This document shows, in pieces, positions 143 to 21,817 of a stretch of 32,702 nucleotides of DNA; within the stretch, counting starts at the first letter, position 1; each line of letters opens with the position of its first letter. The notes under the pieces were generated by a model that was given only the letters and a program-made list of their open reading frames with translations, made no database searches and was not told the DNA's origin. Origin of the DNA: a virus (lineage: Duplodnaviria > Caudoviricetes). The stretch is from positions 1 through 32,702 of the IMG/VR virus record IMGVR_UViG_3300012347_000095. One strand, written 5' to 3'. The position numbers and the translations under genes were made by a program.

Positions 143-655
143 ATGAGACTCACAAACTTTATTCGCGACGCATTCATTCGTGCAGCAATGCACGACGTGC
201 CAAAAAAAGATTATGAAGAGCAGGCGCAAAAGCTTGCGCGAGAATTTGTTAAGGCCAAGTTTGCAAAAGACTTTCCATCGATGGACTACGACAAAGCTGG
301 CGAATCTGGATGGTTCGAATCAAGCAGCCTTGAAATGCCTCGCCACATAGGAAACATCTACATGAAGGTGACCACAGGTTACGGCATGATCAAGCGAGAT
401 GAGAAGACATGGGCCAAGCTTGAAGAGCTGAGTGTTAAAAAGAAAGAGCAAGACGAAAACATGTCAGCGCTTGAGTATCGACTGCGCGGCGTCGCTTATG
501 CCTGCACAACACGCAAGCAACTCGAAGAGGCTTTGCCAGGGTTCAAGGCATACTTACCAGAGGAAGAGGCCAAGGCGGCAAAGACTCTTCCAGCGGTAGC
601 AAACGTATTAGCAGACTTCACAAAGGCTGGCTGGCCAGCGAAAGGTAAAAAATGA
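143..655 (+). CDS. Nmad5-like (nucleotide modification associated domain 5) protein
   Basis: 170 aa; AAGGA SD; N-terminal MRLTxxIR and C-terminal TTRKQLEEALPxFKAYLP resemble the Nmad5 family. Confidence 0.65.
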   Translation: MRLTNFIRDAFIRAAMHDVPKKDYEEQAQKLAREFVKAKFAKDFPSMDYDKAGESGWFESSSLEMPRHIGNIYMKVTTGYGMIKRDEKTWAKLEELSVKKKEQDENMSALEYRLRGVAYACTTRKQLEEALPGFKAYLPEEEAKAAKTLPAVANVLADFTKAGWPAKGKK

Positions 656-10612: not shown

Positions 10613-11122
10613 ATGCAACGCTATATCGGCACAAAGATCATCAACGCTGAGCCAATGAACCGACAGAAGTACAACGACTTCCGTGGCTGGACATTGCCAG
10701 AAGATGAGGACGGAATGGACGAGGGTTACCTTGTCGAATACCTTGACGGCGGCAAGCCCAACACAGACAAGTTCGAGGGCTACGTTAGCTGGTCACCGAA
10801 AGAGCAATTCGAAAAAGCTTATCGTCAATCAGACAACCTGTCGTTTGGTTTGGCGCTCGAGGCTTTGAAGGATGGCAAGCGCATCGCTCGCGCTGGCTGG
10901 AACGGCAAGGACATGTGGCTGTCACTGAGCTGCGGTGAGACTCGTGAAGTTTCTTCGTCTGGCTTCTGGTCACAAAACAATCGTGAGTACGCTGACTCTT
11001 TGGGCGGTGCTGCTACTGTGTTGCCATGCATCACCATGAAGGTTGCCACTGGTGAGATCTTGATGGGTTGGCTCGCATCGCAAAGCGACATGCTCGGCGA
11101 AGACTGGGTGATCCTCGAATGA
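10613..11122 (+). CDS. two-domain protein with C-terminal DUF2829 (Tad2-like)
   Basis: FG.ALEALK.G.RIAR.GWNGK.MW...GWLASQ.DML.EDW; N-terminal YIGTK...GYLVEY...SWSPK domain. Confidence 0.8.
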   Translation: MQRYIGTKIINAEPMNRQKYNDFRGWTLPEDEDGMDEGYLVEYLDGGKPNTDKFEGYVSWSPKEQFEKAYRQSDNLSFGLALEALKDGKRIARAGWNGKDMWLSLSCGETREVSSSGFWSQNNREYADSLGGAATVLPCITMKVATGEILMGWLASQSDMLGEDWVILE

Positions 11123-12277: not shown

Positions 12278-12305
12278 AAAAAGGGAGCCTCGGCTCCCTT
12301 TCTTA
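12276..12305. terminator. bidirectional intrinsic terminator
   Basis: AAAGGGAGC-CTCG-GCTCCCTTT stem; A7 on the left gives the - strand U-tract, TTTCTT on the right; sits between convergent arms. Confidence 0.9.
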
Positions 12306-15035
12306 TTCGTCTATCGGGTTGCCCTCGATGTCGAGACCCTCTTTCAATCGTTGGATCTTTAGCTTTTGGAAGTCGCGTTCTTTGGCTGCGTTCTCAGGTG
12401 TGATTGCACCCTTGTTCTCCAGCCTATTGACTCGCTTGACCTCAGCCTCCAAACCTTGTATCAGCTTGCGACGATCAGCTGCCTCAAACTTCTCAGACAA
12501 GTCGAGGTCGACTGGCCTGATCTTGATGCCCACCGTTTGCGCAATAGCGTACTTGGCCTGCACTGGTAGGCCGTCCTTGCCCACGCCTGTGTAGCCAAGC
12601 ACTGGTTCGCCAACTTGATTTGCGATCACGTTGAGGGCGCGATCCCAATGGTAGTTGCCGACGGCCACCGCAGGGGTGAACTGTTGCCACATCCACTTGC
12701 CACGCTTAGCTGCGGCCTCGGCGCTGGTATCGTTCTTTTCAACGATCTCTTTGCCGTAGAAGGGGTCTTTGTTCCACAGCATGGCGCCGACCACGTTGAG
12801 GATGGGGCTGCTGGGGGTGAGGGGCTGCAGCAATGGAATGCCGCCAGCGTTGGAGTGAGCGTCGAGCAGGTCGCCGCCAGGGAACACTCGGCTCACGTCC
12901 AAGAACAACGGCAGGTTGGTCACGTCATCCATACCCATGCGGATCGCCTTGGGTGTGCCCAACGTGGCGCTTGCACCCTTCATCCATGGCGGCAGGTTCT
13001 TACGTTGGTCTTTCTCCAACTCGCGCGCACGCTCACGGAACTCAGGGTCCGTTACGTAACGTCGCACAACTTCCCACCAATCCTCATCCTCGCCACCACC
13101 AAGGCTTGCGGCCATGGCGTACATCATCGCGTTGACGGTGTACAGCGCAGCGGCTGGGGCAGCATAGCGCCATGGCTGCTCGAGCGCAGTTTGGGCTAGG
13201 GTTGGGACCACCTTGTAGGTGTAGCTGAAGAACGGCAGCGCATAGTCGCGCAGCTTGCGCGCACCGCTTGGCAAGTCGTCGTAGGTGAAGATGTACTTCT
13301 GCGCATAGTCAACCGCATCATCAGGGCCTAGGCCGCGCTGACGAGCCTCACGGTATATCAGGTATCGGAAGAACAAATCTTCGGCCTCGTAGGCTTTTCC
13401 TGCAGGTTTGCGCAGCCAAAACGACAGAGCATTCCACACAGCATCCACACCTTGGGCAGCCTTGGACTCACTGGCTGTGGCCAACACCTTGAGTTGCTCG
13501 GGCATGTCGTTAAGCAAGTCGGCGCGATTGAACGTGCCGCCAAACAAGCCAACGCCCTTGGCCTCCTCGATCATGGGGTGACCCTTGACCAAGTCACGGA
13601 TCGTGCCGATGTACTTGTGCGCATCCCAATAGGAGATGCCAGCGAAGTGTGCCATGGTCAAGTTGGACAACACGTTGTTGGCGTGCGAGACTGGGTTGAG
13701 AACTGTCTTGCCCTCTTTCCACATGCTCAAACCCTTGAGGTAGATCTTCATCAGATCGCTCTGCATGGATGAGTCAAATGCCACGAGGTGGTCCATCACT
13801 TCGGCGGGCACCCACTTGTTGGCCAGCTTGCCATAGGTCTTAGCCTTGGTTCCTTCGACCGTACTGTTGGGCACCTGCACGTAGCCCTCTTGCTCGCGCT
13901 TGACAGCCACGGTGTTGGCCAGGTTCTCATACAGTCGACCAAGTGCGATGTCGCGTTGGCTCTTGTTGTAGCCCATCACGAAGCGGAACATGGCATCACG
14001 GATCTCGCCCATGTCGTCACGCTCATCGCGGGTGTAGTCACGCCACATGGTGATCTCGGTGTCGTTCTGCGCATCGAAGTCATCGTCGCGAACTTCCCAC
14101 CCTTGGTCAATCCAATCCTGCTTGTCAGCGACAGGCACGTTCTTGAAAATGCCACGAGCCTTGAGGCTGGAGCCGCCGATACCTTGCATGGTTTTCTTGC
14201 GGCCAAGCAATCCTTTGACGGCTTTCATCCACGCCTTGGTTTCGTCCTTGAGCTTTGACTCATAGAAGCGTGGTAGGTACTTGCCGTCCCATCGACCAGC
14301 GGCGTCTTCGCTCAACATTCCCAAGCGGACAAGCTCAGCCGACTGCTCGGACATGATCGACTTCATGGATGCGGCCAACTCGAGGATGTGCTTAGGCGGC
14401 TTTGATCCGCGCTTGAGTTCGCCCTCGATCACGTCGCTGATCATTTGACGTTCTTGGTCTGACAGATCTTTCATCTTGCCAGCCACCTCGACGGTGAGGT
14501 TTTGCGCGCGCTCGATCTCCACCTTCATCTTGCGCAGTGCGCGAGATAGGTCTTGGCTGATGGGCTTGAGTTTGATTTTCTCCAACACCACGTTGGCCAC
14601 ATCGGACACAGCACGATACGCTTTGGCGCCAGCACCGAAACGAAAGTTGCCCAACTCGTCACGCGCCAACAGCCACCCATTGGTGGCCTTGCTCACGGTC
14701 TTTGTTGGTACTGATGCCGCACCCTTACGCTTGGCCAACATCATGTCGGCTGGGTGTTCGTAGCGCCAATCAGCAGCAGCCTCGACGAAGCCGTTGTAGT
14801 CGTTGTCCACAAACTCGTCGATGGTTTTGTAGCCAGCCGCCTCGGCGCGCTGCTGCAAGTATTCTTGTTGAGCCTTGGCATCTTCAGACAAGTCAAGCGT
14901 GCGATTGCTCATCTGAATGTCGACCTTGCCGACGATAGAGTCGACACCATTCAACACGAGGAAAGCCTTCATCTCGGCCATGCCGACGATGGTCTGCTCC
15001 CCGTCCTTGGTGTTGAACTTGTAGGTGCAGCTCAT
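12303..15035 (-). CDS. large putative internal virion/ejected protein
   Basis: 910 aa, mostly helical; last gene of the structural arm; no catalytic motif recognised. Confidence 0.75.
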   Translation of the reverse strand: MSCTYKFNTKDGEQTIVGMAEMKAFLVLNGVDSIVGKVDIQMSNRTLDLSEDAKAQQEYLQQRAEAAGYKTIDEFVDNDYNGFVEAAADWRYEHPADMMLAKRKGAASVPTKTVSKATNGWLLARDELGNFRFGAGAKAYRAVSDVANVVLEKIKLKPISQDLSRALRKMKVEIERAQNLTVEVAGKMKDLSDQERQMISDVIEGELKRGSKPPKHILELAASMKSIMSEQSAELVRLGMLSEDAAGRWDGKYLPRFYESKLKDETKAWMKAVKGLLGRKKTMQGIGGSSLKARGIFKNVPVADKQDWIDQGWEVRDDDFDAQNDTEITMWRDYTRDERDDMGEIRDAMFRFVMGYNKSQRDIALGRLYENLANTVAVKREQEGYVQVPNSTVEGTKAKTYGKLANKWVPAEVMDHLVAFDSSMQSDLMKIYLKGLSMWKEGKTVLNPVSHANNVLSNLTMAHFAGISYWDAHKYIGTIRDLVKGHPMIEEAKGVGLFGGTFNRADLLNDMPEQLKVLATASESKAAQGVDAVWNALSFWLRKPAGKAYEAEDLFFRYLIYREARQRGLGPDDAVDYAQKYIFTYDDLPSGARKLRDYALPFFSYTYKVVPTLAQTALEQPWRYAAPAAALYTVNAMMYAMAASLGGGEDEDWWEVVRRYVTDPEFRERARELEKDQRKNLPPWMKGASATLGTPKAIRMGMDDVTNLPLFLDVSRVFPGGDLLDAHSNAGGIPLLQPLTPSSPILNVVGAMLWNKDPFYGKEIVEKNDTSAEAAAKRGKWMWQQFTPAVAVGNYHWDRALNVIANQVGEPVLGYTGVGKDGLPVQAKYAIAQTVGIKIRPVDLDLSEKFEAADRRKLIQGLEAEVKRVNRLENKGAITPENAAKERDFQKLKIQRLKEGLDIEGNPIDE

Positions 15036-15523
15036 TAGGCGCCCAATTCTTGGTCAATGATGATGAGGCCGCACTTGTCGTCGCCAATCAACTCGAGGCG
15101 TGCGAGCAAATCGCCGTACTCACCAACGCTCTTGCGTTGGGTCTCGAGGAATTGGAGAAGGAATTGTTTTGTGATCGCGCACTTGCACTCGTCGTACCAA
15201 GTGGAGTAGTTCTCCATCAGCTCGACCTCAGTGTCGAACGCAACTTCAATAGCGTCCATCAAACCAGATGGTTTGTCGCGCATAGCTTCGATCATTGGGA
15301 TGTTTGCAACAGAGCCACGATCGTTCATGTAGTCGGCCAGCTTCTGATAGTGAGTCAGCTCATCAGCACTCTCGCCAGCAAAGAACTTTTGCGCACCGAA
15401 GAAACCCATGCGCTGCATGTGATTCGATAGGTGCTTGTATAGGTTGGATGCGAACAGCTCCGCATGCACAGCCTTGTCCAAAATAGTTTGAGTCTCTGGC
15501 TTGAGAAAGTTACGGGTTGCCAT
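15035..15523 (-). CDS. ferritin (non-haem ferritin-like)
   Basis: E..AS..Y, GAQKFF...S.DE..H..KL.DY..DRG, then E and Q ferroxidase-type residues; AAGGA SD. Confidence 0.85.
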   Translation of the reverse strand: MATRNFLKPETQTILDKAVHAELFASNLYKHLSNHMQRMGFFGAQKFFAGESADELTHYQKLADYMNDRGSVANIPMIEAMRDKPSGLMDAIEVAFDTEVELMENYSTWYDECKCAITKQFLLQFLETQRKSVGEYGDLLARLELIGDDKCGLIIIDQELGA

Positions 15524-15532
15524 TTTGATTCC

Positions 15533-18500
15533 TTACTTGCAATTGATTTTGATGAGGCCGTCTTCTTCGAGTTGGCCAACGATGTCGTAGAAGTTCTCTT
15601 CGACTTTTTTGATTTCCGCGCTGAGCGGGTTATTTTCCACCTGCTCTTGCACGCGGGTAAGCTTCAGGCCACGAGCACCACGAAGGTCCGTGAACAACTT
15701 GGTCAACGAGAGTTGTAGTTGCTCAGATCCAGCCCGTCCTTGAACGCTGCCTTGAACTCCTCGTCGAACTGCTTCGCCACCAAGTCCCGCTTGATCACTT
15801 CCTCGGGCGTCAGGATACGAGGCGGTTGTGGCTCGATATACGGCCTCCCCAATTCGTCCTTCTTGAAATTCACTTTCTGTTGCATTTTGTAACCTCTCTT
15901 TCAGTCCTGATTGTATCACAGGTGTGATGTCTCTCAGGTTTGCAATCTTTGCATTACCTTGTCCACGTGAGTTGTCGACCACGATCAACTTAAACATTGG
16001 GTTGTCACCGAACTCTTCTTGTAGTTTTCTTACAACAGAGCTTGAGCCAGCGTGACCCTTGACCAATGCGTCAATGGTAACGGTGCGACCCATGCGTTCT
16101 GCTCGGGTAAGCACGCCGTTACGCATAGCTTCAACAGGCTCTCGATAGACATAGACAATGCGCACTTTGTTGCCAGCCTTGAGCGCCGACTCCACATTAC
16201 GCTTGGCCTTGTCGTAGCTGGAAAGTGTCCCGTCCAAAACGGTGTGAGCCTTGTTAAGCATGTTGCCTACCAACTCGTTGGCTGTAGACTTGCCAGCGCC
16301 GCCACCGCCAGCCATGAATGCAACGATGCCAGCGTCGTTGTTTGCAATTCGACTTTCAAACATTGCTTGCGTCAAGAAGCTAGAAGCCTCGTGCACTTCA
16401 GCCGCACGTGAGCGATCAGCACGGTACTCGGGTGACAGCTCGCGCACCATGTCGGTATCCAAGATGCGACCGCCGTCTGTGCCTTTGAGGTTCTCGTACT
16501 CGCCAATGACCTGCTCAATGTCTGCATTGATGCGCTCTTGAAGGGCGTCGCCAATGTTGGTTTCAGCACGCTTGCTGAACATGAACGTGGAGCCAGCCTT
16601 CTCAAACACTGCGTTAGCGTCATCGGCTTCTGACTTGGCCACACGGGCTGCGCCAAACTCCAACTTGAATGAAGGGGCTGCGGTGTTGAGTTGCGGGCGC
16701 ACCTTGATGATGTCCATCATCTCGCGCTCGGTAGGCTTGCGCACCAAGTCGTTGCCAGATTCTTGAGTGCTTATTTTTTGAGCAACCATCTGCGGCTTGC
16801 GCTGCACCATGGTCTGCTCTGACGACTTGCCCACGGCCTTGACTGGCACATCAGAGTTGAGTACCACGGCCGTGCCTTGGGCGCGATTGATGTAGCCACG
16901 GAAGCCAGCGTCAAGAACGCCAGACTCGAACGCGTTAGGTTCAGCAGAAAGCTTCAGCGTCCCAAGAGATGGGTCATACAGATTGCTTAGGTTTGCGGTG
17001 TAGACATTGGTGCCCAAGCCAATCTCTGGTTGGGGAATGCCACCCTCCATGGGGAGGTAGAAGTAGACGCGGCGCTTGATGCGTGGGTCAACGCCAGCGC
17101 CAGACAGGCGCGCTTGCTCCGCGCCCTTGATGCCAGAACCAAAGCTGGTTCCAGACAGTACGCTTAGCCCTGCGCTTCGTCCGTAGTGGATGGCGCCTTC
17201 GACCTTGACTGCATCGCCCTGATCGCGCCCAATGCTGGATCTTCCGATAGGTTCTGGAGATCCTGCACGCTTGCTGAATTGGACGCCGCCGAGGGATTGC
17301 TTGAGCTTGGCGACTTCGGCTGGGTCGAGTCCGAGGTTTCGGATGTCGCCATCGCTGAGGCTGGCAAGCTCTTGGATGCTGTCGTAAGCTCGTCGGACCA
17401 CAGGTGCTGCGTTACCAGCTCCTTGATCCCCTCGAGCCTGTCCACTGTCAGCGCCTCGACCCCGTCCTTGTTTAGCACGCGATTGATTGCGTTGTCCGTG
17501 AGCGTCCGCTGTTGGGGCGCCATTGAATCTAGCAGATCCAACGGAAACACTTGTCTCACCCTCGCGTACATATCTTTCAATTGACGTTGCTCGTTCATCA
17601 TCATTACCTTTCCACTTCATGACCACCACATCTGGGTAGCCATCGGATTCTTTCCACCCACCGTCTGCCCAAAACTTTTTCAGGTCAGCTATTTGGTTGG
17701 CGTCGTAAAAGCTTTCGTCGAATGGGATTGAACCAATCGTCTCGAAGCCGAATTGGCTATACATCTCTGGCAAGAATCCATCAGGGAAGCGCTTGCTCTT
17801 GACGGCGAACGCATCCAAGATGGTCGCACCTTCTTGTATAGCTTTTGTGATGATAGCAGGAATTCCAACACCTTGCGCACCAACCTCGTTGTTGGTCACC
17901 GACACGACCTCGACCTCGTTATCCGAGACGCCGTCGATCATGTCCTTGTACCAAGGCGCGCCGCGCTTGAGGCCAAAGAAAACTTGGATGCCCTTGTCGC
18001 CACCTTGCTTGCCGAGTTGGTAGACGCTGAAGGACTTGTCCTTGATGCCAGCCTTGACTTGGTCGGGCGTGTACATGGTGAGCGCGGCAGCACCTTCGTT
18101 CGCGGCAAGTGCGTCGACGAACTCTTGCACAGACACACCGCCCTCGGCCTTGGTCTTGCCAGACACGAGCCAATTGTCGTTAGCCAAGGCGAGTGAAGCC
18201 TCGGCCTGTCGTGCAGATTTGATGGCCTTGTAGCCGCCCTCTGACACGGATGCCGCGATCTCTGGCGTGATCTCTTGCACGGGCAGCACGCGATCGAATG
18301 CGTACCATGCACCAGCCTCTTTGTTGCCAAGCGTGGGGACTTTGTTTTCGAAGTAGTCGCGGTAGATCAACTCATAGTTGATACCCTTGGCGAGCTTGCC
18401 GACCACCTTGCCACGAAGGCCAAGCGGGTAGGAGGGGTGCATCTTCGTGCCCTCTTCACCAAGCTTGATGGTGGGGTTTTGTTTGTCGACCTCGATGACC

Positions 18501-21500
18501 AACATGGCGTCGCCTTGACGATAGCCTGCATACTCTTGATCGATGGTCTCGCGACGGAAGCGATCGAGGTTTGGCAGACCGTGGATCTGCGCCTCTTTCT
18601 TTTCCAAGATCTTAGCCAACGCACCGCGTTGATCAAACGACAAGCCATCGATGTACTCGATGATGTTGGGTGACTCAAAGCCAACGAAATCTGGCAGTGA
18701 GTTTTTATTTGCGGGTGAGCGAACAATCTCGTCCAACGCGCGCAAGTTTTCAACGCTGATTCGCTTGTCCTTGAGGTACGCCTCAACGGTTTGAATGTAC
18801 GCCTGAGAGATGGTTGCGTTTGTCAAATGGCTGTTGCCATTCATGGCGTGCACAAGGATGTAGTCGCTGTTGTTGACCACGTTCATGATCTTGGTCAGCG
18901 TTGCGCCACCACGCACAGCCCACACCACATTGCTCGCTACGTTCGCAGGCAGAGCCACAAAGTTTGGACCACCCATCATCTCGATGGGGAACTCGAGTTG
19001 GCTGCCGTCGATACCTGTGTAGCTCACGCCAGCGTCGGTCAAGTCGGCCTTGATACCCATGACTCGCTTGCCCACCAAGTCCTTGATCTCAATCGTTGGC
19101 AGCTTCACCAAGTCGCGCGAGCGCGCAGAGTACATGACGCCATCGATGACGGCCTCTTCTTTTGCGACTGGGCCAACTGTTGGTGCAGCCTTCTTAGGTT
19201 CAGCGGTGGTGTCCTTCTCGTTGATTGCCTCAGCGTAGGCTGTGGTCAACAAGTCGCGCGCCTTCTCCACGTCTTTGATGTACTTGGTGACGAAGTCATT
19301 GCCGTACTCTTTGCGTGCACCAGTGAGGATGTCATTGAGCTTGGCCAAGATCTGCTTCGCAACCTCGGCAAAATCTTTGTTGCCCATCTTCGTGCGCAAC
19401 TGCTCCCAAAAGTCAGCGCGCTTTGAGATCGCCTGCACCATGAAGGCGGGGATCTCTTCGTCGAGCTTGTCTTCTGTGTAGTTGAACTCGCGAGCAAACT
19501 CGCCACGCATCTCTTCTTTGAACAAAGAGTTGAGCGCAGCATTCAGCTTGGCGCGAGTCTCTTGCGGCAGACCGTGGTGAGCCTCATGCATTACCACAAA
19601 CAGCGGCGAATCTTCAGTGTCGTCGGCAACAAAAATGTTGTCACCACCAAGGCGATCGATCAAGCCATTTGGCATGGCCGATTGATTGCCTGACTCGTAG
19701 CGCATGACGGTGAGCGTCTTGCCCAACAGCTTGGCCACGGCACTGGCCACCTTGTGAGACTCGTTCATCTCAGCCTGTGGCACTGCGGAAATCTCGACGT
19801 TGTCCTTGATCAACTCTTTGCGAACTGAGCTGATGACGCGCATCGATGCGGCAGGCGCCAGCTTCAGCTCGGTAGGTTGAGCACCTTGCACATCGGGCGC
19901 AACGGCGCCTGTTGTTGGGGCGACTGCGGCTCCAATGGTAGGTGCTTGCTGTCCTTCTTGCGCTGCTTGGATGGCTTGAGTGGTTTGAGTGCCAAGGGTT
20001 GTCTCCTGTGGGGTTGCGGTTTGATAGCCAGCAAGACGGAACTTGCCAGTGGGTAATGGTTCGACCGTCCATTGGAGGTCGGGGAACATGCGTTGGCGAC
20101 CAGCCAAAGCCTGCTCAGCGTCAGGCTTTGTGAGGTATCCATCGCCGCGTCGACCGTACCACTCTTGGGTCAGAGTGGTAGGCTGTTGGCCGTTGACCGC
20201 TCCAGCAGCAGCAACCTGTCCACCGCCGAGTTGAGCTGCGGTGGTAGCAGCAGCCACTCCCCCTGTTGGGCCAGTGACGCTAGATTCTGTAGCGCCCACG
20301 CCTCCGCTAAGCTCAACGCCTGCGCCTGCACCGCTAGGTACATTCGTGGTTCCAACTGCGCTTGGTACGCCGACATTGGTTGTCCCCAATCGTAGTTTGT
20401 CGAGACCGAACTGCTGCTCGATCTCTGGGTTGATTTGCACCTCTGCCAACGGCGTGACAGCAGGGGTTGCCACGGGCACGGGCACAACGACATCCACCAA
20501 GCCTGCAGCCTTTGTGGGGCTGTCGGCTGGGGTGAAGTTGGTGAGTTGGGTAACGGGGCGCTGAGGCGTAAGGAAACCGCGATCGCGGGCCATTTGCTCA
20601 GCGGTTGATACCTCGGGTGCGGCAGGCTGAATTGGCTGCTCGTTGGCCCCGCTAAGGGTTGCGGCGACCTGCGGCGTTGTCATCATGGCGCCAGTCAAGC
20701 CGCCGACAACACCAGCCTCAGCCAATCCCTTGTTGAGTTCGATGTCCTTGCCCTGCAAATACTTGTCGAGCACGTTGCCGCCAAACTGTGCGGTCGTCTC
20801 CTCGATGGCATTGGTCAAGGTGTTGGCAGTGACCTGCGTGCCAGCCTGAAGCAGTCGCTGCCCAGCCAGTGCCAAGATCGCATTCTGCTTGGGCACAGGC
20901 ATGCCTTTAAACATGTCGCCCACTTTGTCGAACACGCCAAGCGGTAGCTTCTCTGTGCCGTACTCGATCGCGCCCTTCATCATGGCGATGCGCGAGTCAT
21001 CACCCTGCGCAAAGCTTTGGCCAGCGGCGGTGGTGGACATGCCAAGCAACATGCCCGCACGAAGCGGCGGCACGAATGCGGCGATCAATTGTTGTGCGAC
21101 CTGCGGCGAGTTTGCTGCCAACTTGGACATCAGCCATGGCGCCATCTCGTCACGGTTCCACGCACCAGCCATGGACTTCTTGCCAATGGCAGGGGTGAAG
21201 TCGCTCGCGGCCTTGGCCAAATACTCAGTGCCGAACATGTTGCCGACGCGCTGCATTGGCGTGAAGCCTGCGACTTGGAGGAACGGATCAATGACGGTCT
21301 TGTTGAAGACGTCGGCCGCCACAGTGGGGGTGTTGATGACGCCAGACAACATGCCTGCGGCGCCAGCTGCCGCACTGCCAAGCAGTGGGTTCTCTTCAGC
21401 GAATTGCTGACGACTGATCTGCCTAGCCAGCTCAGCTTCACGCTCTGGGTTGCGTGAGATCTCAGCGAATGTGGGGGTGTTCTGCGCAGCCAAGCCTTCG

Positions 21501-21817
21501 GCTGCTTTTTGGACTGGCAATGTGGCTGGCTCTTTGAGCATGCCACTGCGCAAGAGATCAGCCTTGGCGGCTGTCTCTTTGCTGATTGGACCAGCACCCA
21601 ACGACAAGCGTTGGTTGACGTTAGCCTGCTCTTGTTGTGGCGTTGGGGCCTGAGTCTCGAGCACGCTCTTGTACTCGGGCGCCACCACATCTTTGATGCG
21701 CTGGATGATGCCGCGCTCAGGTTCTACAAGCTTTTCGGTAGGGGCATCAAGCTCACCGCTAAACTCAACGAATCCTGTGGGCTTGTCAAGCTCGCCACTA
21801 AATTCTTCAAACGCCAT
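15533..21817 (-). CDS. giant polyvalent virion protein (HExxH peptidase, GNAT, ART-like, zeta-toxin-like kinase)
   Basis: 2094 aa; HEAHH at 19574-19588; LDAF..LP..Y..FGF at ~17607-18140; HY...YFY...NLYD...GFRGY at ~16850-17205; GGGGAGKS at ~16286-16309. Confidence 0.8.
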   Translation of the reverse strand: MAFEEFSGELDKPTGFVEFSGELDAPTEKLVEPERGIIQRIKDVVAPEYKSVLETQAPTPQQEQANVNQRLSLGAGPISKETAAKADLLRSGMLKEPATLPVQKAAEGLAAQNTPTFAEISRNPEREAELARQISRQQFAEENPLLGSAAAGAAGMLSGVINTPTVAADVFNKTVIDPFLQVAGFTPMQRVGNMFGTEYLAKAASDFTPAIGKKSMAGAWNRDEMAPWLMSKLAANSPQVAQQLIAAFVPPLRAGMLLGMSTTAAGQSFAQGDDSRIAMMKGAIEYGTEKLPLGVFDKVGDMFKGMPVPKQNAILALAGQRLLQAGTQVTANTLTNAIEETTAQFGGNVLDKYLQGKDIELNKGLAEAGVVGGLTGAMMTTPQVAATLSGANEQPIQPAAPEVSTAEQMARDRGFLTPQRPVTQLTNFTPADSPTKAAGLVDVVVPVPVATPAVTPLAEVQINPEIEQQFGLDKLRLGTTNVGVPSAVGTTNVPSGAGAGVELSGGVGATESSVTGPTGGVAAATTAAQLGGGQVAAAGAVNGQQPTTLTQEWYGRRGDGYLTKPDAEQALAGRQRMFPDLQWTVEPLPTGKFRLAGYQTATPQETTLGTQTTQAIQAAQEGQQAPTIGAAVAPTTGAVAPDVQGAQPTELKLAPAASMRVISSVRKELIKDNVEISAVPQAEMNESHKVASAVAKLLGKTLTVMRYESGNQSAMPNGLIDRLGGDNIFVADDTEDSPLFVVMHEAHHGLPQETRAKLNAALNSLFKEEMRGEFAREFNYTEDKLDEEIPAFMVQAISKRADFWEQLRTKMGNKDFAEVAKQILAKLNDILTGARKEYGNDFVTKYIKDVEKARDLLTTAYAEAINEKDTTAEPKKAAPTVGPVAKEEAVIDGVMYSARSRDLVKLPTIEIKDLVGKRVMGIKADLTDAGVSYTGIDGSQLEFPIEMMGGPNFVALPANVASNVVWAVRGGATLTKIMNVVNNSDYILVHAMNGNSHLTNATISQAYIQTVEAYLKDKRISVENLRALDEIVRSPANKNSLPDFVGFESPNIIEYIDGLSFDQRGALAKILEKKEAQIHGLPNLDRFRRETIDQEYAGYRQGDAMLVIEVDKQNPTIKLGEEGTKMHPSYPLGLRGKVVGKLAKGINYELIYRDYFENKVPTLGNKEAGAWYAFDRVLPVQEITPEIAASVSEGGYKAIKSARQAEASLALANDNWLVSGKTKAEGGVSVQEFVDALAANEGAAALTMYTPDQVKAGIKDKSFSVYQLGKQGGDKGIQVFFGLKRGAPWYKDMIDGVSDNEVEVVSVTNNEVGAQGVGIPAIITKAIQEGATILDAFAVKSKRFPDGFLPEMYSQFGFETIGSIPFDESFYDANQIADLKKFWADGGWKESDGYPDVVVMKWKGNDDERATSIERYVREGETSVSVGSARFNGAPTADAHGQRNQSRAKQGRGRGADSGQARGDQGAGNAAPVVRRAYDSIQELASLSDGDIRNLGLDPAEVAKLKQSLGGVQFSKRAGSPEPIGRSSIGRDQGDAVKVEGAIHYGRSAGLSVLSGTSFGSGIKGAEQARLSGAGVDPRIKRRVYFYLPMEGGIPQPEIGLGTNVYTANLSNLYDPSLGTLKLSAEPNAFESGVLDAGFRGYINRAQGTAVVLNSDVPVKAVGKSSEQTMVQRKPQMVAQKISTQESGNDLVRKPTEREMMDIIKVRPQLNTAAPSFKLEFGAARVAKSEADDANAVFEKAGSTFMFSKRAETNIGDALQERINADIEQVIGEYENLKGTDGGRILDTDMVRELSPEYRADRSRAAEVHEASSFLTQAMFESRIANNDAGIVAFMAGGGGAGKSTANELVGNMLNKAHTVLDGTLSSYDKAKRNVESALKAGNKVRIVYVYREPVEAMRNGVLTRAERMGRTVTIDALVKGHAGSSSVVRKLQEEFGDNPMFKLIVVDNSRGQGNAKIANLRDITPVIQSGLKERLQNATESEFQEGRIGEAVYRATTASYPDARGSDQAGLGGEAVRRGVQGSVQGRAGSEQLQLSLTKLFTDLRGARGLKLTRVQEQVENNPLSAEIKKVEENFYDIVGQLEEDGLIKINCK
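15703..15885 (-). CDS. nested +1-frame ORF after the zeta-like domain (candidate antitoxin)
   Basis: 60 aa; GAGAGG SD 7 nt upstream; own promoter copy; charged, helical sequence. Confidence 0.7.
   Translation of the reverse strand: MQQKVNFKKDELGRPYIEPQPPRILTPEEVIKRDLVAKQFDEEFKAAFKDGLDLSNYNSR
15910..15931 (-). promoter_or_regulatory. intragenic copy of the early promoter
   Basis: GACATCACACCTGTGATACAAT; 19/22 identical to 1394-1415; last 12 nt identical to 1978-1989. Confidence 0.75.
17164..17598 (-). CDS. nested +1-frame ORF after the GNAT domain (candidate antitoxin)
   Basis: GGAAAGGTA-ATGATGATG start region; first ~70 aa look globular and helical while the host frame is an R/G/A-rich linker. 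Confidence 0.55.
   Translation of the reverse strand: MNEQRQLKDMYARVRQVFPLDLLDSMAPQQRTLTDNAINRVLNKDGVEALTVDRLEGIKELVTQHLWSDELTTASKSLPASAMATSETSDSTQPKSPSSSNPSAASNSASVQDLQNLSEDPALGAIRAMQSRSKAPSTTDEAQG
19864..19995 (-). CDS. nested +1-frame basic peptide
   Basis: AGGAG-N7-TTG; MALKPLKPSKQRKK... (43 aa). Confidence 0.3.
   Translation of the reverse strand: MALKPLKPSKQRKKDSKHLPLEPQSPQQQAPLRPMCKVLNLPS
20170..20376 (-). CDS. nested +1-frame ORF
   Basis: GGGGA-N7-ATG; 68 aa Leu-rich helical sequence under a G/A/T-rich host linker. Confidence 0.5.
   Translation of the reverse strand: MSAYQAQLEPRMYLAVQAQALSLAEAWALQNLASLAQQGEWLLLPPQLNSAVDRLLLLERSTANSLPL

Follow-up and report, generated by a model that had tools for sequence, protein, structure and literature searches.

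Putative inhibitor genes nested out of frame in the gene for a phage polyvalent protein

Results

The 2094-aa gene and the ORFs in its +1 frame

The window, by which we mean the whole stretch of 32,702 nucleotides that was analysed, carries its replication genes on the plus strand. On the minus strand the order is tail-fibre, spanin, endolysin and acetyltransferase genes, then a gene for a protein of 2094 aa (the host gene and host frame in what follows), then a ferritin-like gene and a gene for a protein of 910 aa. Four smaller ORFs, A to D, all lie in the +1 frame of the 2094-aa gene. The features of this region are listed here, with the basis of each assignment in parentheses.

15533..21817, minus strand: gene for a polyvalent multi-domain protein, host frame, 2094 aa (sequence; shuffled domains in relatives)
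20170..20376, minus strand: ORF A, +1 frame, ATG start with GGGG 7 nt upstream, 68 aa, helical (conservation)
20003..20161, minus strand: small host-frame domain marked by a WYGRRGDGY motif, lying after A and before B (found, in variant forms, at A loci)
19864..19995, minus strand: ORF B, +1 frame, TTG start with AGGAG 7 nt upstream, 43 aa (conservation)
19208..19855, minus strand: zincin-like metallopeptidase domain, HEAHH at aa 744-748 (motif)
17558..18217, minus strand: GNAT-fold domain, aa ~1201-1420, with a GAQGVG loop at aa 1313-1318 (model and fold matches)
17164..17601, minus strand: ORF C, +1 frame, a conserved helical domain (17601-17377) followed by a read-through tail (78/80 loci)
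17205..17262, minus strand: segment with a DLQNL motif in the tail of C, directly before the domain that begins at aa 1543 (conservation in +1)
16748..17191, minus strand: host-frame domain, aa 1543-1690 (no Pfam match)
15833..16522, minus strand: zeta-toxin kinase domain of the N. gonorrhoeae zeta_1 type (Pfam E 4e-15; 6EPH E 2e-9)
15703..15885, minus strand: ORF D, +1 frame, ATG start with GAGG 7 nt upstream, 60 aa (78/81 loci)

The four ORFs had been noticed in a preliminary description of this DNA, which gave each of them an SD-like site about 7 nt upstream; all are indeed found on the minus strand in the places where it had put them, and a purine-rich site precedes every one. The start positions given for A, B and D hold, but B begins with TTG rather than ATG, and the conserved start of C is 17601 instead of 17598. 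It had also been proposed that each ORF starts where the host frame degenerates into low-complexity linker: this is true of A, which begins in the middle of a long linker, but not of C and D. The start of C falls within the final helices of the modelled GNAT domain, that of D within the final helices of the stretch aligned to zeta_1.

Unrelated effector domains are joined in the single 2094-aa chain (an HExxH motif, a GNAT fold and a zeta kinase). The latter two had been described as GNAT and zeta-like from the translation, and these assignments are corroborated at the level of fold for the first (Z 11.1, rmsd 3.2, 153 aligned) and of family for the second (Pfam E 4e-15). Zeta_toxin is the only Pfam match in the window's own 2094-aa protein; PF18857, PF18760 and PF18834 are matched by close homologues, and LPD38, LPD22, ART-PolyVal and other domains are present in relatives, in shuffled order. 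Since these domains are shuffled among relatives, we regard the 2094-aa protein as a polyvalent protein sensu Iyer et al. 2017. The passages of that paper (PMC5512222) on such proteins describe the same giant multi-domain build with a metallopeptidase motif, a GNAT fold and a zeta kinase, as well as the LPD38, LPD22 and ART-PolyVal domains common to the relatives found here; the naming of the metallopeptidase domain as MPTase is also taken from them. Neither the metallopeptidase domain nor the domain with the WYGRRGDGY motif has a Pfam match, and Pfam gives no domain assignment for the host regions at aa ~890-1200, 1543-1690 and 1690-1750, none of which has a nested start of its own. The domain at aa 1543-1690 is perhaps ART-like, solely by its H/Y motifs; an assignment as L5_gp82-like was dropped, this domain being different from the L5_gp82-matching region of P0021.

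The ferritin-like gene lies between the 2094-aa gene and the 910-aa gene (window 12303-15523). In many relatives the sequence of the 910-aa gene is fused behind zeta and D, and the zeta-D unit is found in either gene.

Coding signal and frame of conservation

Coding scores within the window are coding-like for C (15.7) and D (28.2), while A (-12.0) and B (-2.3) fail this single-sequence test, so that the case for A and B rests on conservation. When the host gene was shuffled synonymously 1000 times, no shuffle yielded two positive-scoring, SD-led ORFs in the +1 frame (mean 0.017). The composition of the host protein is clearly different under the nested ORFs, with 66-77% of G/A/R/S/T/P/Q as against 37-44% in the domain cores.

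Alignment of homologous genes frame by frame had been suggested as a check, and it shows that the frame of selection moves to +1 over A (identity 0.65 in +1 versus 0.45 in the host frame), over C (0.32 versus 0.23) and over the C-terminal half of D (0.35 versus 0.26), while the GNAT and zeta cores behave normally. Stops in the +1 frame of homologues, which would have spoken against nested genes, are not seen to break the ORFs: C is open in 78 of 80 loci and D in 78 of 81. Entry of ribosomes into the +1 ORFs by programmed frameshifting was discarded as an explanation, because the SD and ATG are conserved across loci and are retained in an orphan copy described below. Searches of Pfam and PHROGs with A, B, C and D returned nothing. 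Matches in RNA runs were to scattered contigs only, and matches of this kind say nothing on frame or expression.

ORFs A and B

ORF A has 68 aa and an ATG in each of 18 loci, and likewise in all 7 distinct loci that had not been fetched by A itself; one homologue is longer, probably through an N-terminal miscall, and no fusion of A to other families was found among the homologues. A start signature written as a narrow pattern for the host protein recovers A in only 12 of 21 host proteins. A is modelled as a small helical protein (pLDDT 79). The fold search in the PDB gave no clear match (best Z 3.8), the search against viral models gave only A8HNW3 (E 0.43, TM 0.67), that among cultured phages gave no meaningful match, and the Atlas search nothing usable. 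Judged by its conservation, A is a real nested gene.

ORF B consists of a basic head, a variable middle and a Cys-containing tail, and ends just before the metallopeptidase domain. In 15 distinct relatives the start is always TTG, the SD is usually AGGAG, and the length varies from 24 to 79 aa. Identity over the first ten codons of the head is 0.93 in +1 and 0.79 in the host frame for relatives picked by the head motif itself; in a second comparison, over codons 2-17, the values are 0.70 and 0.69. The Cys tail is present in 12 of the 15 (0.50 versus 0.39), and in 13 of them the stop lies 92-94 codons ahead of the HExxH motif. B is probably a real nested gene by these signs; for B alone, a by-product of linker composition is a plausible reading, to which we give a clearly smaller weight. 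Its tail may be a cysteine-switch-like block of the peptidase, an assumption of ours from the motif and a candidate only.

The SD and head of B (window 19941-20006) also match many otherwise unrelated wastewater contigs, in some of which they have an SD and start of their own. In two loci (L010:3976 and L011:4519) a ParB-like domain, recognized by motif, is inserted before B, and an SD and ATG of its own lengthen B N-terminally.

ORF C and the GNAT-fold domain

Three ATGs (17604, 17601 and 17598) could start C, which ends at 17164 and has 145 aa; the one at 17601 is conserved, with an ATG in 75 of 80 loci versus 14 of 80 at 17598. Of 81 GNAT loci, one without the anchor position was left out. 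In 78 of the remaining 80 the GNAT-fold domain is followed by a C ORF of at least 72 aa in the +1 frame, and the other two end at contig ends. Only the first ~75 aa of C form the conserved domain, the length of the family being mostly 79-82 aa. The most variable base over C is the third position of the +1 frame. In the GNAT core the relation is reversed (host 0.55 versus +1 0.27), and the +1 frame is open in only 6 of 54 control windows. The SD before C is strong in 17 of 54 loci and loose in 52 of 54, as compared with 16% for a loose SD in a background set of 8178 +1 ATGs.

The model of the GNAT module (pLDDT 83) matches acetyltransferases (Foldseek E 1e-4), and the domain is toxin-like by fold, which by itself is no proof of toxicity. 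The linker at aa 1427-1470 has pLDDT below 50, i.e. it is predicted to be disordered under the core of C; C sits between the GNAT core and the terminal helices of the GNAT module (aa 1473-1510), which lie beyond the overprinted linker. Co-folding of C with its neighbour, another of the checks suggested beforehand, gave a complex model with a score of 0.86, the best of three controls reaching 0.24; the mark against which this score is read was reached by 116 of 157 solved pairs and by 2 of 215 mismatched ones, and it transfers only roughly to the alignments used here. The runs share at least 62% of contacts, and the pLDDT of the partner is at least 84. The predicted interface covers aa 1315-1320 and 1342-1355 of the host protein, i.e. 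the GAQGVG loop and the helix that follows it, which by GNAT anatomy we take to be the part that holds acetyl-CoA. C is therefore predicted to bind the GNAT domain over its likely acetyl-CoA cleft and, because the contacts fall on this loop and helix, it is likely to be a GNAT inhibitor. Profile searches of the PDB with C and with the GNAT module found designed-repeat or chance matches only; the Atlas search with C gave nothing usable, and there were no matches to this GNAT domain in the cultured-phage records.

Within the tail of C, the DLQNL segment is again better conserved in +1 (0.74) than in the host frame (0.58), as calculated from 6 distinct segments. It terminates three different nested ORFs and is also present in the protein P0188, and is possibly a second, fused module.

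ORF D and the zeta kinase

The zeta domain retains D1789, K1843, R1905 and R1911 (the catalytic Asp, the P-loop Lys and two Arg), which match D56, K115, R175 and R181 of zeta_1 and are invariant in 23 of 23 aligned sequences. The zeta loci compared were 80 fetched ones and that of the window. In 78 of these 81, a +1 ATG occupies the same position and opens an ORF of 48-61 aa; the other three (L064, L069, L092) have instead a different +1 ORF of 62 aa, possibly an antitoxin replacement. Of 59 distinct loci, 49 show a strong SD ahead of D, versus 7% of the 8178 +1 ATGs. A start signature of the host protein, [ND]-[AVE], a dipeptide able to spell the +1 ATG, is found in 117 of 120 zeta protein homologues. 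Over the first ~20 aa of D it is the host frame that is conserved (0.56 versus 0.39 in +1), the +1 frame taking over only in the C-terminal half.

The host frame reads through D, which is then nested, in 39 of the 78 loci. In the other 39 a stop codon closes the zeta gene 4-13 codons beyond the domain, so that D extends past the 3' end of the gene; 26 distinct loci of this stand-alone type have an open frame of ~250-350 codons up to the end of the zeta domain, two of them being cut by a contig end. The simplest reading of these sequences is that D first lay downstream of zeta in a stand-alone pair of genes and was enclosed once this pair had joined the giant gene. At least for D, then, it looks as if the toxin frame was extended across a gene already present behind it, and not as if D had originated on top of an older gene.

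In the PDB the D profile found designed-repeat or chance matches only and did not match epsilon_1; D is short and fast-evolving. In an AT-rich relative D is shorter (40 aa) and is missed by the D profile. The zeta domain itself has a single match in the cultured-phage records. Taken with its place behind the kinase, the conservation of D makes it a likely zeta antitoxin.

Pairing, orphan, tandem and fused copies

In the fetched loci D comes after 102 of 106 zeta matches and C after all 103 GNAT matches, with no case of C or D paired with the domain of the other (0/106 and 0/103); some contigs are counted more than once here, and it was from these very loci that the profiles had been made. With the C profile 270 clusters were matched, of which the best 150, with 16 cluster members, were examined, and among these there are proteins with 2-5 copies of C in tandem. 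P0188 is a single protein made up of C, the DLQNL motif and a tail of the D family (E 5e-9), and its N-terminus resembles, by eye, a fourth nested family. P0188 and the tandem repeats are known here as proteins alone, apart from their DNA context, and no viral locus was found for P0188.

C also occurs as an orphan. In a Pseudomonadota assembly, a C 77% identical to that of the window lies at the 3' end of a tRNA-Ser, in a cassette beside a seryl-tRNA synthetase-like gene (L191:3700-4672, JBDKFA010000360.1). Its parts are co-directional and comprise a gene of an antisense family, C following this gene, and the SD and tail of B, with the tail motif at the end of C; in phages the gene of the antisense family is nested in antisense after a RelA/SpoT-like domain. 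The SD and the open frame of this orphan C are intact, whereas the host frame carries a stop, and no match to the GNAT core was found in the assembly. A second orphan C, in the genome G300, is fused behind an IS transposase-like frame, and G300 likewise has no GNAT match. Altogether, among 301 bacterial genomes of one family, the first assembly included, two carry C but show no match to GNAT. Both orphans may be decaying prophage relics; the DNA that has survived in them is mainly the part with the nested genes. Four other genome matches were treated as chance (L192 and L193, and G290 and G214, which lie inside long ORFs).

Adjoining or fused to free C homologues there is a domain of ~130 aa (L205:1724-2128; P0202, P0288, P0300), perhaps a host-side partner in such cassettes.

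Other nested families

In 269 host ORFs of at least 500 aa from the fetched loci, 448 SD-led nested ORFs were counted in +1 as against 50 in +2; this excess is in part due to the lower number of stops in +1. At least four more protein-like +1 families were recognized, each at a fixed domain boundary. They include those of L031:1486, L023:8333, L040:4525 and L038:3582 with their relatives (11, 11, 6 and 3 members), where the adjoining domains are without assignment. An additional family, after DUF7178, was a guess that was dropped after the Pfam domain check.

One nested family is antisense and likewise sits at a fixed domain boundary, in 5 loci (L184:5675-5878, L185, L099, L100 and L190). It is a minus-strand gene of 68-75 aa with AGGAG, and covers a Ser-rich linker. 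The domain immediately ahead of this linker is RelA/SpoT-like, by a Pfam match that stays below the cut-off (E 0.0025); the antisense gene is a candidate inhibitor of a synthetase toxin. Inside the giant gene of the window no plausible antisense nested gene was found.

Discussion

The preliminary description had proposed that domains and overprinted immunity genes are concatenated as units in one virion protein. For C with GNAT and D with zeta the existence of such units is well supported by the pairing, the stand-alone zeta-D loci, the complex model (for C) and the orphan and fused copies. This does not carry over to A and B: both precede all the toxin-like domains of the chain, and no toxin partner was found for either; as neither follows a toxin, the label of immunity gene is not earned for them. 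The explanation that we consider probable is that C and D are nested inhibitors of the enzymes that they adjoin in a polyvalent protein, with A a real gene and B a probable one. Their strict pairing, the complex model for C and the orphan, tandem and fused copies are the reasons for which C and D are likely to be cognate inhibitors.

According to this explanation, the mRNA of the giant protein would also serve for C and D, with ribosomes starting at internal binding sites, and each of the two products would bind and silence its own enzyme while the giant protein is made, so that the producing cell would stay alive until lysis. The giant protein would then enter the virion and reach the next host free of active inhibitor, and its enzymes would act there. 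We infer the virion location only from the gene neighbourhood. Each enzyme with its inhibitor gene would form one recombination cassette and, upon joining the giant gene, the host frame would read the inhibitor gene as a Gly/Ala/Arg/Ser linker; because the host frame reads through the inhibitor gene, domain shuffling could not separate enzyme from inhibitor. Bacteria or other elements would sometimes retain the inhibitors alone, as orphan or poly-immunity genes.

The small proteins might instead bind their domains as chaperones, activating subunits or packaging adaptors. A binding model is blind to the difference between inhibition and activation, C lies inside the GNAT module with the core on one side and the terminal helices on the other, and A and B have no upstream toxin at all. 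Against this, the contacts predicted for C fall on the GAQGVG loop and the next helix, presumably the acetyl-CoA site, and it is hard to see what an activator would serve for as an orphan, in tandem or in a fusion of several families; we regard this alternative as unlikely.

Inhibition could also serve another end, if C and D were antitoxins of addiction or superinfection-exclusion modules acting in the phage-carrying cell rather than protecting it during production. The stand-alone zeta-D pairs do resemble ordinary two-gene modules, and the remnant at the 3' end of tRNA-Ser suggests that there are relatives that integrate. However, the giant gene is co-directional with the tail-fibre, lysis and virion-type genes and comes after them, and polyvalent proteins are called virion-embedded in a passage of PMC9503650. 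The two roles can coexist; as a replacement for protection during production, we hold the first to be quite unlikely.

A third view, which would suit A and B, is that these are independent small genes parked in tolerant linkers and linked to the domains by descent only, since adjoining DNA is co-inherited. For C and D it is hard to reconcile with the fact that each stays with its own domain across shuffled architectures and in stand-alone zeta genes, and that the complex model of GNAT and C passes its controls, so that for the set as a whole it appears very improbable. Finally, that the +1 ORFs are untranslated by-products of linker composition, as might be thought from the low number of stops (46) in the +1 frame of the 2094-aa gene, from the abundance of long open stretches there and from the basic, low-complexity, length-variable B, has, B apart, a negligible probability in view of the frame-shifted conservation, the fixed starts and lengths and the free-standing homologues.

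The reading of C and D as nested inhibitors can be compared with known systems. In the GNAT toxin-antitoxin systems AtaRT, TacAT and KacAT a GNAT-fold enzyme is neutralised by a small protein, the antitoxins being upstream ribbon-helix-helix regulators; C differs from these in lying downstream, inside the host gene, and its sequence, which matches no Pfam family and nothing meaningful in the PDB, has the pattern of a helical protein. A precedent for a small gene wholly nested in +1 whose product binds the host-frame product is offered by lambda Rz/Rz1; it is a single structural lysis pair, whereas here there is an array of domain-specific modules.

In the polymorphic toxin-immunity systems, as portrayed in passages of Zhang et al. 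2012 (PMC3482391), one finds the same association of a toxin domain with an adjacent small cognate gene, the same shuffling of cassettes, and orphan, tandem and fused immunity copies such as those of C. Unlike what those passages describe, there are here several enzyme domains per chain, the inhibitor genes are inside the toxin gene and out of frame, and delivery is likely by the phage virion; set beside those systems, C, D and A have no Pfam family match. A layout in which one toxin closes the chain and its immunity gene stands apart behind it is absent in the window, and present in the stand-alone zeta-D relatives.

The epsilon_1/zeta_1 system of N. gonorrhoeae (Rocker et al. 2018, PMC5923241) has a homologous kinase, whose D56, K115, R175 and R181 have equivalents here, and epsilon_1 is described there as wrapping its toxin in extended form. 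The coil-plus-helix make-up of D could, by analogy, allow a similar wrapping. Unlike epsilon_1 as presented in those passages, D has no sequence match to epsilon_1; it overlaps or nests in the toxin frame, its zeta is one domain of a 2094-aa chain, and no OB domain is visible. As for the polyvalent proteins themselves, they are predicted in PMC5512222 to enter with the DNA, and zeta is suggested there to weaken the cell wall. The word 'overlap' does not occur in the main text of that paper and the passages on these proteins do not name cognate inhibitors, putative nested inhibitors being a feature of the present case.

In the literature searched, with most subscription papers outside its scope, there was no description of nested inhibitors in polyvalent proteins. 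The nested arrangement is real and widespread, and apparently undescribed; going by the sequences, it would work like a toxin-immunity system built inside one gene, with toxicity and rescue both putative. A broader proposal, on which we are evenly divided, is that polyvalent proteins are a hidden multi-toxin/immunity class, in which the inhibitor of each effector lies out of frame, sometimes in antisense, in the linker, and from which bacteria and other elements harvest inhibitors into orphan or poly-immunity cassettes against the injected enzymes. If this were true, the linkers would be an immunity array that has gone without annotation.

The arrangement suggests a testable answer to the question of how a phage can mass-produce a protein laden with toxic enzymes without early death of the host, and of how toxic domains can be shuffled safely. 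A nested partner would mark which polyvalent domains are likely to be toxic, and would supply the partner needed for cloning them. Putative inhibitor families that are easily overlooked by gene callers come to light as well: in MW202577.1 a D-like ORF of 40 aa (L202:3224-3346, approximate) overlaps, without annotation, the end of a zeta gene labelled as thymidylate kinase. The orphans hint at bacterial defence by means of captured phage antidotes.

Two genes in the early region of the window may be mentioned in addition: one with a Tad2-like anti-Thoeris domain (window 10613-11122, Pfam E 6e-22) and an Nmad5 gene (window 143-655, Pfam E 4e-18).
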